Below, piece by piece: positions 14,354 to 36,105 of a stretch of 44,853 nucleotides of DNA. Under the pieces are notes generated by a model. It was not told where the DNA came from and made no database searches. It saw nothing but the letters and a program-made list of their open reading frames with translations. Position 1 is the first letter of the stretch; each line of letters opens with the position of its first letter. The DNA comes from a virus (taxonomy: Duplodnaviria > Heunggongvirae > Uroviricota > Caudoviricetes): the IMG/VR virus record IMGVR_UViG_3300045988_031537; one strand, written 5' to 3'. Both the position numbers and the translations under genes were made by a program.

Positions 14354-17300
14354 AGCGCTTCATCTCCGCACCTTCCGCTACAAGAGGGAACCCCCCCGCC
14401 CACTCTGGCAACGCACACATTAATTTTTCCAGTTCAGGCACCGTGTAATCCGGCGTATCTGGAGTTTCACATACCAGTTCATCGTGTACCGAAAGCACGA
14501 TGGGATACCCGCCACCCTCAACATTAATCATCGCATATGCGAGTAAATCACGGCACAGCGCCTGAACAATGTTTTCGCAGGCTTTGCCGCCGTGTGTGTA
14601 CAGGGTAGTCCATTGGCGGGTTAACTGGTTTTCACCTTGGTACTTGATTCGCACATTCGTGTTTACCCGTCCGTCTTCGTCTGTTTCTTTTGTCACGCTA
14701 ACGCCGATTCCTGGATACGAGAGGATACGGCCCGACGGCAACTCCATACACAACCACCAACCGGGAACCTTCCTACCGGATGAATCGGTTTCTACTGTTC
14801 TCCAGATTCGGATAGCGCGCTCGCCATTCTTGCGCAGATGCGCCCCCGCCCAAAATTCACGACCCGGATTTCTTACAGCGGCTAAAATACCGTCTTTGAG
14901 GTCGCGCCAGAACGCTACTGTTTCCGGGTGTGACTCGCGCCACATACGCTTGATTGCATCGCAGGTGCGCCACACTTTCTTGTCCAGAATATACGACGGT
15001 CGGTCGTCCTTTTCACCTGGATGCGGGGGGTGCTTGGCTTCCTGGATGCGCGCCCACTCGTACCCGCGTGCAGTGGCCGACCAGATATGGTCCGGGAATG
15101 TACCGTCCATTGTTTTTGCCATCTCAATAAGGTCAAGACCTAGGTTTTTAGCAAACGTAACGAACGCTCCAACGCCGCCCTCGTAGCCGAGGCCAAGCTC
15201 GCAGTTATGCGCCACAAGAAAGCCAGAGTCTGAGGCTATAAGAAAACGGTTGCCGTCTTCCACATCAATCAGGTCGTACACCGGCTCGCAGTAGGTTAAT
15301 TTCCCGCTCAAGTTCAGCAATGCGGGCAACGGCTGCATCATACTTTCGTTGAAGCTCGGGTATTTGCCGTCTGTTTCGGCAGTTTTCAGAACGGCTGACA
15401 AACCGAATGTTTCCAGGTTCGTAGTTACCGTCTGTGTCGATTCTATCCATTTCGAGGTTCGGGTCATCCCAGCCTTCCAGAGTTTGAACATATCTAAGAA
15501 AAGACCTTTTATCAGTCCTCCACTGGTCGAATACCGTGATGCCTCTTGCCCCATAGTTTTTATAACCCTTATCCCTGGGGCTTGTTGTTCGCGTGATCGC
15601 CGCTGACAGCCGGTTGAGTAATCGCGTTCTGTGTGCATCATCCGGCATTGCGTCTTCGTAGCAGAAATACTGTTTACGATATTTTTTTGTTGCTTCAAGG
15701 GCGCAGCGGTTGCATTGAGTGGTTTTACCCGCTCTGACGTTGTCATAATAGACCCGCCCCGGCATCTCTCCGCAATCACATTGGACGAGTAGTTGTCTTT
15801 GGCCTTGTCGTTTTGGCAACTCGCGCAGGATAACCAAGCGTCCATACCTCTCTCCAGGGCTAGGCCCATCATATATCTGTTTGAAGCGAGTTGCTTTGCC
15901 TGCTTCCAGGAATGCGCCAAGATTTTGTGATCTTCGGTCATTAGCACCCCGTCCACATTTATTACCGGTTTCCACCCCATAAGGTGCGCGCCTTTTGTAT
16001 TCACCCATTTTTCACCGCTCCATACTTTATCTGTTGATGTAACCGCCATAATATCCTTAAATCCGCCATCGGTCAAAACCTGGGTATGACGGTGAAGGCA
16101 CGCTTTACCAATCTGGCGCAAGTCTTTACGTTCTTTCTTAATGTCATCAGGGTCCATACCGAACATCTTGCCTGCGGTTACACAGTAAATATCCAGTCCG
16201 GCGCGGAACGTATCGAGCGCGGTTTCTTCACCTGCCAGCCACGCAAGCCCGCGGCCTTCAACGTTAGAGTAATCGGCGACGACAAACTTATGCCCGGCTT
16301 CCGGTATTATGCAGCTACGCACAGTAGATGCCGTTAGTTTGGCTACATCAAAACGGCGATGGGCGCGGCCCTTAAGTAACGCTGAAATGCCTTTATCCAG
16401 CTCATCATCATGATAGTAACCGCGTGCCAGGTTCTGCGGCTGGAAGCCTTTACCTGCCCATCGCAGAGTACGTTTTGCCCCACCGTACTGCAAGCAACCG
16501 CGACGGCGGTCGTCCGAAGAGCGGCCCCGCAGCAGCGGGTTATATTTCGTGGACGCCGTGGACGCGGCCCCGAGGCGCATTTCGATAATCGTGCGTGCGT
16601 CGTCCGGTAAATCATCGTCGGCCAGCAGGTCATTCAGCGTTGACTTCTGCACGTTGTGGATTCGGTGCGCAGGGGCAAGTTCGCGCAGAATCGGCAGAAA
16701 GTCTTTACCAGTAAGCGAGCCGCCGTATTTGCGTTGGGCCTCTTCCTGTAACTGCGCTTTGTGTTTCTCCACGGCTTCAATCGCGGCTTCTGCCAGTGCC
16801 ACGTCAACCTTAAACCCGCGGTCGTTGATTAACTGGTCCAGTTCCAGTACACGGTCCTCGAACTCCGAGTTACCCCAACGTGGCAGCTTATGGAATACCT
16901 CACGCATCGCGGTAATATCGCTCACGGCGTACTTGATGAACAACGCCCATTCATCAGGGTGCGTCTCGGCGGTGTAGCGTCTGATTTTGTAGTTCTTCGG
17001 TGTCGGTTTAGAGAAACGCTGAATCAGCGCCTTGCCACGCTTATCCTTCGCATTGTCAGCAGACACGCCCAGCACTTCGCACAATGAGTCAAGTGAACCC
17101 GGCAATGCATGACGAAACGCCCAAATCATCGTATCAATGGTGTTGCGTACCGGAATATCAAAGCCCCAGCAGTGCTTCATTATGAGCCTGTCGAACATTG
17201 AGCCGTTGTGCCACACCATCTTAATGCGACTGTTAGGCTTAACCAGACGACGTAACGCGCGGTGCAAATCGCCCGGCATGTCACTGCCGTCGGTGCAATC

Positions 17301-27584: not shown

Positions 27585-27849
27585 GTTATTCTGGTTCGGC
27601 GGTATGCTGGCAATCGGAGGCACATCGCTGTTTAATGTGTATCACCCCAGCGTTGACGACGGGCTATTTGGTCGGGTGCTCTATATCCTGACCGCTATTG
27701 TCTGCGCTGCCGGGGGCATTCACCTGTTACAGGGCAGCATGTCGCCCACGTTGCCTGAGACATTAATCACATTAGTTGCGCTGCGTCAGATTCGACAGGC
27801 GTGGCTGTCATACGGAGGACATAAGCGTGTCTCGAAACATTTCAGATAA
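27577..27849 (+). CDS. Membrane protein (second holin or antiholin candidate)
   Basis: ATG overlaps holin stop; two hydrophobic segments. Confidence 0.4.
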   Translation: MNELFWFGGMLAIGGTSLFNVYHPSVDDGLFGRVLYILTAIVCAAGGIHLLQGSMSPTLPETLITLVALRQIRQAWLSYGGHKRVSKHFR

Positions 27850-28342
27850 TGAACTTAGCCGTGACTATGTTCGTAGCGTTTTAGATTACAACCCTGACAC
27901 GGGGTTATTCACGTGGCTTAAGACGGTTAGTTCAAAAGCCCCTAAAGGGACTGTGCCAGACGGGAGAGACCCGGACGGGTATAAAGTAATCATGCTCAAA
28001 GGTAAATACCTACGGCAACACAGGCTTGCATGGTTCTATATAACAGGAGAGTGGCCCAGCGGGCAGATAGACCACAGGAACGGGGTAAGAGACGATAATA
28101 GGTTTTGTAACCTGAGAGAATGTGACTCGCAGGACAACAACCGCAACCGTGGGTTATCGCGCAACAACACCAGCGGAGTATCAGGCGTCCATAGACAGCA
28201 AGGGAAATGGATGGTGAGAATCCGTTTGCAAAAAGGTGTGCGCAAGTTTTTCGGTTACTTCGATGACCTTGAGTTCGCTGAGTTAGTAGCTAGCGAAGCC
28301 CGAGATAAATACCACAAGGAGTTCTCTTTATGCGCTCGATGA
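27827..28342 (+). CDS. HNH-AP2 homing endonuclease
   Basis: GTG start after GGAGGA; IDHRNGVRDDNRFCNLRECDSQDN HNH motif plus AP2-like GVSGVHRQQGKWMVRIRLQKGVRKFFGYFD. Confidence 0.65.
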   Translation: MSRNISDNELSRDYVRSVLDYNPDTGLFTWLKTVSSKAPKGTVPDGRDPDGYKVIMLKGKYLRQHRLAWFYITGEWPSGQIDHRNGVRDDNRFCNLRECDSQDNNRNRGLSRNNTSGVSGVHRQQGKWMVRIRLQKGVRKFFGYFDDLEFAELVASEARDKYHKEFSLCAR

Positions 28343-34334: not shown

Positions 34335-35411
34335 ATGCTATTAACTTTAGCACCACAGGGTTTAGCTATGAGCTTACTTACATCTCTAATCAGCCACCAG
34401 ATATGGCTGCAACGCACCGCATCCGGTGAAGTGAAAGACCTCGCACCGTTCCTTCAGGAGATGCGGGACGAAATCAAACGGCAGGTGCTGTTATTCGGCG
34501 ACGACGGGCGGAGCACCGCGCGGCTGAATAAATTGTTACGCGACCTCGAAGAAGCATTAACAGGACTTACAGGCGGCTGGCAGACGAAGCTGACAGAAGA
34601 CCTTAAGGAACTGGCAGCATATGAAGCGGAGTGGAACGTAAAGACACTGACCGCCAACGTAGACGCGGAATTTGTTACGCCTACCGCTGAACAGGTGTGG
34701 GCCGCTGCCGAGTTTCAGCCGCTCTCATTAAGCGACAAGCCTGTCGACTTCACTAAGCTGATGAATGGTTGGGGCGAAACAGAAGTAGCGCGCCTGGTAA
34801 CTGGCGTTAAGATGGGTTTCGTACAAGGCCAGACCACACGGCAGATTGTTAAGAATGTCGTAGGCGCGGGTGGGCTGGCTGACATCTCTGAGCGAAACGC
34901 AACTACTGTAATTCGCACCGCGCTTTCCCACGTATCCAACGAAGCCCGCAACGAGACGTACCGCCAGAACGACGACATCATCGAGAAGTACGAGTGGGTA
35001 TCAACACTGGACAGCCGTACCAGTACGATTTGCAGAGCCAGAGACGGAATGACGTGGGAAATTGGTAAGGGGCCGATGCCCCCCGCCCATCCGAATTGTC
35101 GAAGTACCACTGCACCGGTAATCAGTTCGGAGTTCGACTTCCTAGATAAAGGTGCAAAACGCGCGGCTAAGGGTGCGGACGGCGGTATGCAGGTAAGCGC
35201 AGACACCACCTATTACGAGTTCCTGAAACAGCAACCGGCATGGTTCGTGGATGAAGCACTCGGACCTACCCGCGGTGCTATATTCAGGAATAGTGGGATA
35301 TCCCCAGAGGAATTCCGGGTAATATCCGTCGACGCTTTTGGTAGACCTTTAACCTTGAAGGAGATGGCGGCGTTAGATAACAGGGTTGCTGAATATCTTA
35401 GGTCGGTATAA
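34335..35411 (+). CDS. Head morphogenesis protein (Mu F / SPP1 gp7-like)
   Basis: PPAHPNCRS motif; position after portal. Start may be ATG 34368. Confidence 0.7.
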   Translation: MLLTLAPQGLAMSLLTSLISHQIWLQRTASGEVKDLAPFLQEMRDEIKRQVLLFGDDGRSTARLNKLLRDLEEALTGLTGGWQTKLTEDLKELAAYEAEWNVKTLTANVDAEFVTPTAEQVWAAAEFQPLSLSDKPVDFTKLMNGWGETEVARLVTGVKMGFVQGQTTRQIVKNVVGAGGLADISERNATTVIRTALSHVSNEARNETYRQNDDIIEKYEWVSTLDSRTSTICRARDGMTWEIGKGPMPPAHPNCRSTTAPVISSEFDFLDKGAKRAAKGADGGMQVSADTTYYEFLKQQPAWFVDEALGPTRGAIFRNSGISPEEFRVISVDAFGRPLTLKEMAALDNRVAEYLRSV

Positions 35412-35535: not shown

Positions 35536-36105
35536 ATGGGAATTGTTTTTGGTGTGGGTATTAACGATGTTTCACCAATAAGTTGCGGAGGGGTGCATAT
35601 AGCGTCCTACGCCGTATGGAAGAACATGTTAAAGAGGTGCTACGACAAGAAATGGCAGCAAAGAAACAGAACTTATATAGGTTGCCGCGTGTCGGACGAT
35701 TGGTTGGTGTTCAGTAATTTCAAGGTCTGGTTTGATGATTTTTATGTACCTGGGTGGCAGATAGATAAGGATTTACTTAACCCGGGAAATAAGGTTTACG
35801 ATGCTTCTAACTGTGTTTTCATCCCTAAATCCCTCAATACTTTCCTAACAGCCCACGACGCTCTTCGAGGCGAACACCCACTCGGCGTACATTTCCATAA
35901 ACAAAAGAAAAGATTCATCGCTCAAGTATCCGTGGATGGCGTATCTGAACAAATAGGCGCTTACGAAACCGCTCAAGAGGCACACGTAGCATGGTTTCAT
36001 AGAAAAATTGAATTAGCATATGAATACAAAGGTCTTTGCGATAGCATAGACCCACGCCTTTTCGAAGGCGTCTTACGTAAGATTAACTCAATGAAAGAGG
36101 TTTAG
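35536..36105 (+). CDS. HNH-AP2-like homing endonuclease, possibly degenerate
   Basis: AP2-like GVHFHKQKKRFIAQVSVDGVSEQIGAYETAQEAHVAW; HNH-like GWQIDKDLLNPGNKVYDASNCVFIPKSLN with Lys where His is expected; preceded by a 12-bp-stem hairpin at 35468-35517. Confidence 0.5.
   Translation: MGIVFGVGINDVSPISCGGVHIASYAVWKNMLKRCYDKKWQQRNRTYIGCRVSDDWLVFSNFKVWFDDFYVPGWQIDKDLLNPGNKVYDASNCVFIPKSLNTFLTAHDALRGEHPLGVHFHKQKKRFIAQVSVDGVSEQIGAYETAQEAHVAWFHRKIELAYEYKGLCDSIDPRLFEGVLRKINSMKEV

Follow-up and report, generated by a model that had tools for sequence, protein, structure and literature searches.

The 44.9-kb window analysed here (44,853 nucleotides [nt], IMG/VR record IMGVR_UViG_3300045988_031537) belongs to a siphophage of the Guernseyvirinae, of the Kagunavirus/Jersey-like kind. 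For the polymerase gene, identity is 92-93% with the copies in Escherichia phages SXAU_B4 and fPoEco01 and in Salmonella phage SP-101, and ~86% with the copy in Salmonella phage SETP3. The gene codes for a family-A DNA polymerase (PolA) with an intein in its motif B, and a second gene lies inside the intein in another reading frame. This nested gene codes for the first of three nuclease-like proteins of the phage, called proteins 1, 2, and 3 in what follows (Table 1), and the existence of all three open reading frames (ORFs), as listed in an earlier note on this DNA, was confirmed in the window sequence. Proteins 1 and 3 lack the histidine that defines HNH enzymes. Putting the analyses together, we consider it fairly probable that both are homing endonucleases with a His-Me finger (beta-beta-alpha-metal) of the PacI type, and that protein 1 is made separately, from its gene nested out of frame in the PolA intein.

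Table 1. Features of the PolA locus and of the three nuclease-like genes (positions of the window; aa, amino acids; E and H, predicted strands and helix).
Feature	Position	Strand	Remarks
Family-A DNA polymerase precursor, 1032 aa	14343..17441	-	host gene; frame stop-free across nested gene
Class-1 intein, 299 aa, polymerase motif B (RQIGKA/C...TEDH...VAHN/C)	15204..16100	-
GGAG Shine-Dalgarno-like site	16018..16021	-	9 nt upstream of nested ATG; from intein codons TGG AGC (W-S)
Nested-gene ATG start	16006..16008	-	overlaps second Trp codon of intein W-x-G-x-x-W (AAA TGG)
Protein 1 gene, 247 aa	15265..16008	-	nested gene, predicted histidine-less Asp-Arg...Tyr...Asn His-Me-finger protein; -1 (+2) frame of polymerase and intein
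Protein 1, Cys4 zinc ribbon Cys77-x-Cys79...Cys99-x-x-Cys102 in SH3/Tudor-like barrel	15703..15780	-	putative DNA-binding module
Protein 1, beta-beta-alpha unit LEMDRIDTDGNYEPGNIRFVSRSENCRN, residues 185-212	15373..15456	-	AlphaFold E185-189, E201-205, H206-212
Protein 1, putative active-site codons	D188-R189 15442-15447; Y196 15421-15423; N200 15409-15411; N209 15382-15384	-
Protein 1, C-terminal coiled coil, residues 216-241	15286..15363	-	AlphaFold helix; putative dimerisation element
Protein 2 gene	27827..28342	+	canonical His-type HNH_3 endonuclease, divergent AP2-like C-terminus; comparison case
Protein 2, H83	28073-28075	+	catalytic-position His codon
Protein 3 gene, 207 aa	35482..36105	+	free-standing; Lys-type histidine-less HNH-like domain and AP2; likely start 35536
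Protein 3, putative active-site codons	K96 35767-35769; Y106 35797-35799; N119 35836-35838	+
Protein 3, AP2 domain	~35878-36021	+

Protein 2 is a regular member of the Pfam family HNH_3 (PF13392; E of 1.2e-12, 47.6 bits against a cut-off of 24.8). It reads I-D82-H83...N95...N104/N107, as in canonical enzymes, and D82, H83, N91, N95, R97, and N107 are invariant in 79 of 79 homologues, many of which also contain PF00847. The earlier note had proposed that an arginine and a lysine replace the histidine in the other two proteins, and we came to the same result, with Arg189 in protein 1, Lys96 in protein 3, and a histidine (His83) only in the protein encoded at 27827-28342. The motif of protein 1 is M-D188-R189-I-D...Y196-E-P-G-N200-I-R-F-V-S-R-S-E-N209 and that of protein 3 is I-D95-K96-D...Y106...N119. 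Comparison of family profiles with hhalign places Lys96 on His83 (family 3 versus the His-type family, probability 97.7%, E of 1.7e-12). Arg189 is placed on the same residue by a shorter alignment (32 columns, P of 9e-4, probability 23%), which pairs D188, R189, N200, R202, N209, and N212 with D82, H83, N95, R97, N104, and N107, invariant columns coinciding with invariant columns. This profile alignment, named in the earlier note as the way to refute its claim, puts no histidine at the general-base position of either protein. The AlphaFold models (mean predicted local distance difference test of 85.9 for protein 1 and 89.2 for protein 3) predict the beta-beta-alpha core of the His-Me finger in both, with Arg189 and Lys96 closing beta-strand 1 of the unit and a tyrosine in the loop that follows.

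The replacements are not peculiar to this phage. Among 121 homologues of protein 1 (family 1), R189, Y196, and N200 are present in all 121 and D188 in 119, with R202, N209, and N212 nearly invariant, while the 41 homologues of protein 3 (family 3) share D95-K96-D97, Y106, C111, and N119 without exception. The putative metal ligands, D188 and N209/N212 in protein 1 and D95 and N119 in protein 3, are all among these invariant or nearly invariant residues. Protein 1 holds a single histidine in total, H126, and no histidine is conserved among the 41 homologues of protein 3. The loss of the catalytic histidine is therefore a family trait and not local decay, because the arginine and the lysine are found in every homologue of the respective family, each together with the loop tyrosine, so the suggestion of the earlier note that the two proteins are catalytically altered seems well founded. 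Loss of the histidine and gain of the tyrosine go together, since both histidine-less families keep the loop tyrosine and the His-type family (79 homologues) lacks it, with an invariant asparagine where it would sit.

Neither protein 1 nor protein 3 matches any nuclease family of Pfam or NCBIfam even at E<=1, and none of the 93 family-1 members scanned against the same collections reaches a nuclease model; what family 1 returned was coiled-coil noise and a 'CapR homology domain' on the N-terminal barrel. All three proteins match PHROG families labelled 'HNH endonuclease', with phrog_374 common to the three (protein 1 at 1e-46, and a weak match of 1.7e-5 to PHROG 1035), and protein 1 has 306 homologues at E<=1e-3. 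The description of all three as HNH-AP2 endonucleases was not confirmed. Protein 3 does contain an AP2 domain, with a three-stranded sheet and a helix in agreement with AP2 structures and profiles, and protein 2 an AP2-like region, but protein 1 has none.

Three groups of His-Me fingers have been described without the histidine. Two of these, SMAD MH1 and ENPP, have no activity and no tyrosine at the equivalent place either, while the third, PacI, is active and uses a tyrosine of the inter-strand loop as a substitute for the histidine (PMC5714182). Its single metal ion is held by one aspartate and one asparagine, and the tyrosine is positioned as general base (PMC4081073). PacI turned up independently in our fold searches. 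Its motif (sequence from PDB 3LDY/3M7K) is L-G-V-D92-R93-S-D-S-F-E-G-Y100-S-P-Q-N104-A-R-L-A-C-F-I-C-N113, so that an arginine fills the histidine position in this enzyme as well. The PacI segment VDRSDSFEGYSPQNARLACFICN aligns without gaps to MDRIDTDGNYEPGNIRFVSRSEN of protein 1, pairing D92-R93...Y100...N104...N113 with D188-R189...Y196...N200...N209. The common signature is DRxDxxxxYxPxNxRxxxxxxN, and its fixed positions coincide one by one with the columns that are invariant in family 1. A family-1 sub-profile matches PacI in the same register (10.9 bits, E of 1.5e-5 in a single planned comparison); the His-type profile gives no match to PacI. In protein 3, the spacing from tyrosine to asparagine is 13, as in PacI, and the family consensus reads 'YSP' like the 'YSP' of the enzyme, while the stretch from aspartate to tyrosine is 3 residues longer.

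By analogy with PacI, the basic residue that closes strand 1 (Arg189 or Lys96) would stand where the general-base histidine is otherwise found, and the loop tyrosine (Y196 or Y106) would activate the attacking water or attack itself. The preceding aspartate (D188 or D95) and the asparagine of the helix (N209 or N119) would hold a single metal ion. The arginine or lysine probably lowers the pKa of the tyrosine or stabilises the transition state or charge; in GIY-YIG enzymes, basic residues also stand beside the catalytic tyrosine, with a proposed helper role (PMC3384342). With such an active site, proteins 1 and 3 would most likely act as homing endonucleases.

Several points weigh against this assignment. 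The sequence similarity to PacI extends over only 26 aligned residues (10.9 bits); a PDB-wide search with the family-1 profile did not retrieve PacI, phmmer with the 56-aa motif found nothing in the PDB, PacI included, and the protein 3 sub-profile has no sequence match to it. The helix register of protein 3 differs by 3 residues between the hhalign and the tyrosine-anchored alignments. Neither protein reproduces the pair of Cys4 zinc sites found around the active site of PacI: protein 1 has one Cys4 site (C77, C79, C99, C102) in a separate N-terminal barrel, and the protein 3 family a single invariant cysteine. The catalytic tyrosine of PacI was itself assigned by deduction, as the only tyrosine in the loop, and no assay of either histidine-less family was found in the literature searched. 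Last, His126 is conserved in 119 of the 121 members of family 1.

This last residue would be central if the proteins were active with a base supplied by a histidine from elsewhere in the fold, or if our register were wrong, the arginine and lysine then being irrelevant. His126 is the sole histidine of protein 1 and the hhalign alignment of this protein is short and of low probability, as such a reading would have it; however, the protein 3 family shows the same D-[K/R]...Y...N pattern with no conserved histidine, and the only other histidine-rich column of family 1 (142, 101/121) is a threonine in this phage. As secondary-structure prediction, hhalign, and the PacI motif also give one and the same register, we hold this alternative to be very unlikely.

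The PolA intein spans C448...T-E-D-H...H-N746 and is followed by C747, with C1, T55, H58, H298, and N299 of the intein invariant in 50 relatives. The profile TIGR01445 (intein_Nterm) matches 20 of these 50 relatives weakly (best E of 0.0024), the window copy not being among them, and Pfam Vint gives weak matches in 8. We infer that the intein is removed by protein splicing, because it interrupts motif B of an essential polymerase. Phage fFiEco03 lacks exactly the 897 bp at 15204-16100 of the window, RQIGKA being joined to CELGLGYEGG (...CAGATAGGCAAAGCA/TGCGAACTGGGCCTCGGC... at its intein-less polymerase site), and the boundaries of the intein are therefore fixed. When the earlier note called protein 1 intein-associated, it was right about the position of the gene inside the intein, but the gene is out of the intein reading frame and codes for no intein domain.

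The nested gene is offset by 1433 (2 modulo 3, i.e. +2 or -1), covers intein codons 31-279, and overlaps the polymerase gene by 744 nt. Over this length, the polymerase frame contains no stop and the third frame 27. Permutation of synonymous codons of the nested gene introduced on average 5.1 stops into the polymerase frame, none of 300 permutations being free of them, and all 78 of 78 loci have zero host-frame stops, compared with a mean of 3.9 after synonymous permutation. In nested codons 1-50, the conserved frame is that of the intein (45% versus 34% identity), the third position of which is the most variable. At nested residues 55-215, conservation is found in the nested frame, with 57% amino-acid identity versus 29% in the polymerase frame (the value of a non-coding frame), and its third position varies most (0.62 versus 0.30-0.36). 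By these patterns, selection changes frame along the element and is purifying in the nested frame over residues 55-215. Polymerase-frame conservation in the intein is limited to ~90 N-terminal and ~27 C-terminal residues. The ~170 residues between them are unconserved and rich in Thr, Ser, Lys, and Leu, and, judging by the lack of conservation, may form an unstructured linker. A ribosome translating the polymerase would read through the nested gene, and the product would be this unconserved, stop-free linker, spliced out with the intein.

The arrangement is widespread, with the nesting found in 132 of 136 related loci. Relatives of protein 1, down to 41% identity, show the same -1 nesting at the same PolA motif-B intein site in 78 of 80 IMG/VR loci, the two exceptions having broken frames, and in both of the two metagenome contigs. 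Bacterial genomes carry an out-of-frame homologue inside an intein at the same PolA site in 52 of 56 loci. Seventeen of these repeat the -1 arrangement, while in the other 35 this site holds a homologous intein of 309-311 aa (RQKGK.AELA/CIAEG...VHN/CGYGG) with the D-R...Y gene in the +1 frame. The +1 loci (L102, L104-L138) come mostly from genomes of Lachnospiraceae, Clostridia, Acetobacterium, and Allobaculum, for example the Acetobacterium carbinolicum chromosome (L113:1332-4256), and presumably lie in prophages. The -1 frame is used in the window and in 95 other loci, a free-standing homologue was seen at only two loci, and an in-frame version of the nested gene at none of 136. The pair of intein and endonuclease may be old enough to have diverged to ~30% identity and to have filled both alternative frames.

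Translation of the nested gene seems to be tied to the splicing domain of its host. The start codon is found at exactly the same position in 58 of 59 distinct contexts (ATG in 47, GTG in 10, TTG in 1). In the window, the ATG takes its A from a Lys codon and its TG from the second Trp codon in the intein block, and relatives carry, in place of the GGAG, an equivalent GGGAYGG from W-D-G codons. The splicing block of the intein thus appears to double as the predicted translation-initiation region of its endonuclease, because both the ATG and the GGAG lie in the W-x-G-x-x-W codons and the start is kept at this place. Protein 1 would then be the endonuclease of the PolA intein, produced as a separate polypeptide from the internal GGAG-N9-ATG.

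It could also be argued that the nested frame lacks independent translation, and is either the fossil of a once in-frame domain or part of a -1 frameshift fusion. Its position in the -1 frame and the absence of an annotation in most records, such as that of fPoEco01, would agree with this, but a fossil is hard to reconcile with 57% identity and a coding pattern of third-position variation kept across relatives that are ~45% identical, or with an ORF that is intact in 78 of the 80 loci. The conserved start codon and purine-rich site upstream of it speak against either version. In this phage, there is an in-frame TGA two codons upstream of the ATG, and a frameshift site would therefore have to lie downstream of the start. 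Besides, the Firmicutes lineage uses the +1 frame, for which a -1 frameshift signal is no explanation. On these three grounds (conserved Shine-Dalgarno site and start, upstream in-frame stop, and +1 lineage), we rejected programmed -1 frameshifting, and the alternative as a whole is the least probable of those considered.

All three nuclease genes appear to behave as mobile elements, with a sporadic distribution among related phages. Of 249 related phage records, 7 contain the gene of protein 3; in the others, the genes for head morphogenesis and decoration lie next to each other. The gene of protein 2, located between those of holin and endolysin, occurs in 2 of 172. The intein with protein 1 is found in ~150 of 339-365 related records and missing from ~190 of 339. 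When the window is compared with SETP3, f18SE, and other phages, identity reaches 97-99% in the intein and 72-90% in the surrounding polymerase. A constraint from double coding was considered as the cause of this high identity and rejected, as even the freest positions, the third positions of the nested gene in the intein centre, are 95-97.5% identical, compared with 51-74% at extein third positions. The intein has therefore moved through Salmonella and E. coli phages in recent times, and such a spread would require a working endonuclease. Protein 1 probably dimerises through its C-terminal coiled coil and probably cuts intein-less polymerase alleles at motif B.

These observations also bear on whether the two histidine-less domains are dead His-Me fingers that only bind DNA, either as regulators or as targeting subunits, for instance of the HNH protein encoded at 27827-28342. 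The earlier note had considered something similar, proteins that may be inactive and are perhaps retained as DNA-binding or maturase-like factors. The missing general-base histidine would fit, as would the inactivity of SMAD MH1 and ENPP (PMC5714182), the AP2 DNA-binding domain of protein 3, and the 1-5 putative DNA-binding zinc-ribbon barrels stacked in the wider family of protein 1. However, the inactive groups have lost both the histidine and the tyrosine (PMC5714182), and here the tyrosine, the aspartate, and the helix asparagine are invariant in both families, in a motif equal to that of an active enzyme. In addition, the recently spread intein unit codes for no other candidate nuclease, and both genes show the presence/absence polymorphism of homing endonucleases. 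The suggestion of the earlier note is not supported, given the invariant aspartate and asparagine, the sporadic genes, and the recent spread of the intein, and we consider dead fingers unlikely, with PacI-type endonucleases remaining our preferred reading of both proteins.

Outside the beta-beta-alpha unit, protein 1 is made of a Cys4 zinc-ribbon/SH3-like barrel, a helical region, and the C-terminal coiled coil, which in this protein and many homologues gives weak matches to DivIC, ZapB, and bZIP. A PDB sequence search with the family-1 profile returned only a resemblance to the Cox5B zinc ribbon, and Foldseek of the AlphaFold model against the PDB gave nothing significant. The family consensus R-C141-H142-N-P (C in 116 and H in 101 of 121) reads R-T-T-S-P in the window (15565-15588, minus strand) and in close relatives, so this phage has lost a conserved Cys-His pair with the protein 1 ORF still intact.

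The wider family is very large. An exhaustive hidden Markov model search with the family-1 profile, over representatives of clusters at 50% identity, returned 114,743 of them at E<=1e-3, 62,485 at E<=1e-10, and 433 at E<=1e-30. In 147 newly returned representatives, D-R...Y was found in 148 of ~152 genuine motif matches (160 raw pattern hits). Some members (P0337, P0350, P0364, P0282) contain 1-5 tandem zinc-ribbon/SH3-like barrels (G.RFG.L.V...C.C.CG...L..G...SCGC). Some chains hold two complete W..M..RC.NP...YGGRGI...DRID..G.YEPGN modules, which could supply the two active sites for a double-strand break. We are evenly divided on a broader proposal, namely that Pfam and NCBIfam miss a class of phage homing endonucleases of more than 100,000 clusters with tyrosine chemistry of the PacI type, and that in one branch of this class the gene has come to overlap a PolA intein obligately, in a stable two-gene symbiosis.

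Known systems resemble the one described here only in part. The HNH(-AP2) homing endonucleases of the HNH_3 or I-HmuI type, reportedly the subject of Magnani et al. in 2004, are small, sporadic phage genes, free-standing or intein-linked, like all three genes of the window, and protein 3 has the whole architecture (HNH-like domain plus AP2) of the protein 2 family. However, their defining catalytic histidine is missing from proteins 1 and 3, both of which stay below the Pfam model at E<=1. R.PacI is a 142-aa type IIP restriction enzyme with an 8-bp target, unlike proteins 1 and 3, which are encoded by phage mobile elements. Its two Cys4 sites surround the active site, a pair that the phage proteins lack, their DNA-binding modules being a zinc-ribbon barrel or AP2, and it has an arginine at the histidine position, where protein 3 has a lysine and a loop longer by 3 residues. 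PacI belongs to His-Me finger group 20, described as a small group of ~90 sequences mostly from giant viruses (Jablonska et al. 2017, PMC5714182), compared with more than 100,000 cluster representatives for the wider family of protein 1.

As for the nesting, an out-of-frame endonuclease in an intein has been described in actinobacteriophages, EndoVII-like and 'in frame 3', and was called not previously reported (Gosselin et al. 2025, bioRxiv 10.1101/2025.01.02.630785). There too, the endonuclease is encoded within the intein, on the same strand but in a different frame, the extein/intein frame is open, and there are signs of continued spread. That endonuclease, matched to 1E7D, possesses the histidine, unlike protein 1 with its histidine-less, PacI-type motif, and the host phages and target genes are different. 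Particular to the PolA case are the start codon and ribosome-binding site inside a conserved splicing block, and an arrangement fixed in hundreds of phages in two different frames. The ShiLan domain (Arsenault et al. 2025, PMC11855218) is likewise an out-of-frame HNH gene in an open host ORF, that of a phage methylase, but no splicing domain was found there, whereas the PolA case has a bona fide intein with exact intein-less alleles. In fractured genes (Dassa et al. 2009, PMC2677866), intein and endonuclease are also separate polypeptides of one locus, but the host gene is split and the endonuclease does not overlap, while the PolA gene is continuous with an overlap of 744 nt. Literature searches on the polymerase intein of Jersey-like/Kagunavirus phages returned mentions of inteins but none of the nested gene, and no account of the overlap of this ORF with the intein or of its PacI-type site was found in the literature we sampled.

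Tens of thousands of phage proteins annotated as 'HNH endonuclease' or hypothetical lack the HNH histidine, and strict annotation rules would call them dead. The match to PacI offers a concrete and testable active site for them (Asp, Arg/Lys, Tyr, and Asn) and, if true, a chemistry described for a single restriction enzyme would also be that of a large class of nucleases from mobile elements. The same 744 nt serve two frames, one selected for protein sequence and the other only for the absence of stops. If the broader proposal is true, an intein and a homing endonuclease can form a stable two-gene symbiosis on the same DNA with no fused protein. SETP3, f18SE, SP-101, and fPoEco01 are well-studied Salmonella and E. 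coli phages with this polymerase intein, which makes for a tractable E. coli/Salmonella system in which to study the model of intein origin where a free-standing endonuclease invades a mini-intein.

The overlap has consequences for annotation, as gene callers overlook the nested gene or else disrupt the polymerase. The records of Sodalis phage SO-1 (gp39) and Salmonella phage SS3e already list the nested ORF as 'HNH endonuclease', and that of fPoEco01 annotates the polymerase only, with the nested ORF omitted. At L003:1078-3458, the gene caller kept the nested ORF, dropped the N-terminal 700 polymerase codons, and called an 80-aa 'DNA_pol_A' fragment; polymerase annotation in metagenomes thus suffers systematically from the overlap. 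In Salmonella phage SS3e (L016), the nested and the polymerase frames are both interrupted in the intein and the annotated 'HNH endonuclease' has 268 aa, and at another locus (L010) the polymerase frame is cut short downstream of the intein. Each of these two cases could reflect either errors of sequencing or genuine decay.

A second intein is found among the relatives at the locus of protein 3. Some carry an intein of ~900 bp in the head-morphogenesis gene (fEg-Eco06 annotation), and the same has been reported for vKMB36 and Snoke (PMC11162368, PMC6776784). This raises the question of whether the protein 3 gene and the head-morphogenesis intein compete or cooperate at one locus. In the window, the head-morphogenesis gene (34335-35411, plus strand) is intein-free, and the Lys-type HNH-AP2 gene lies directly downstream of it.

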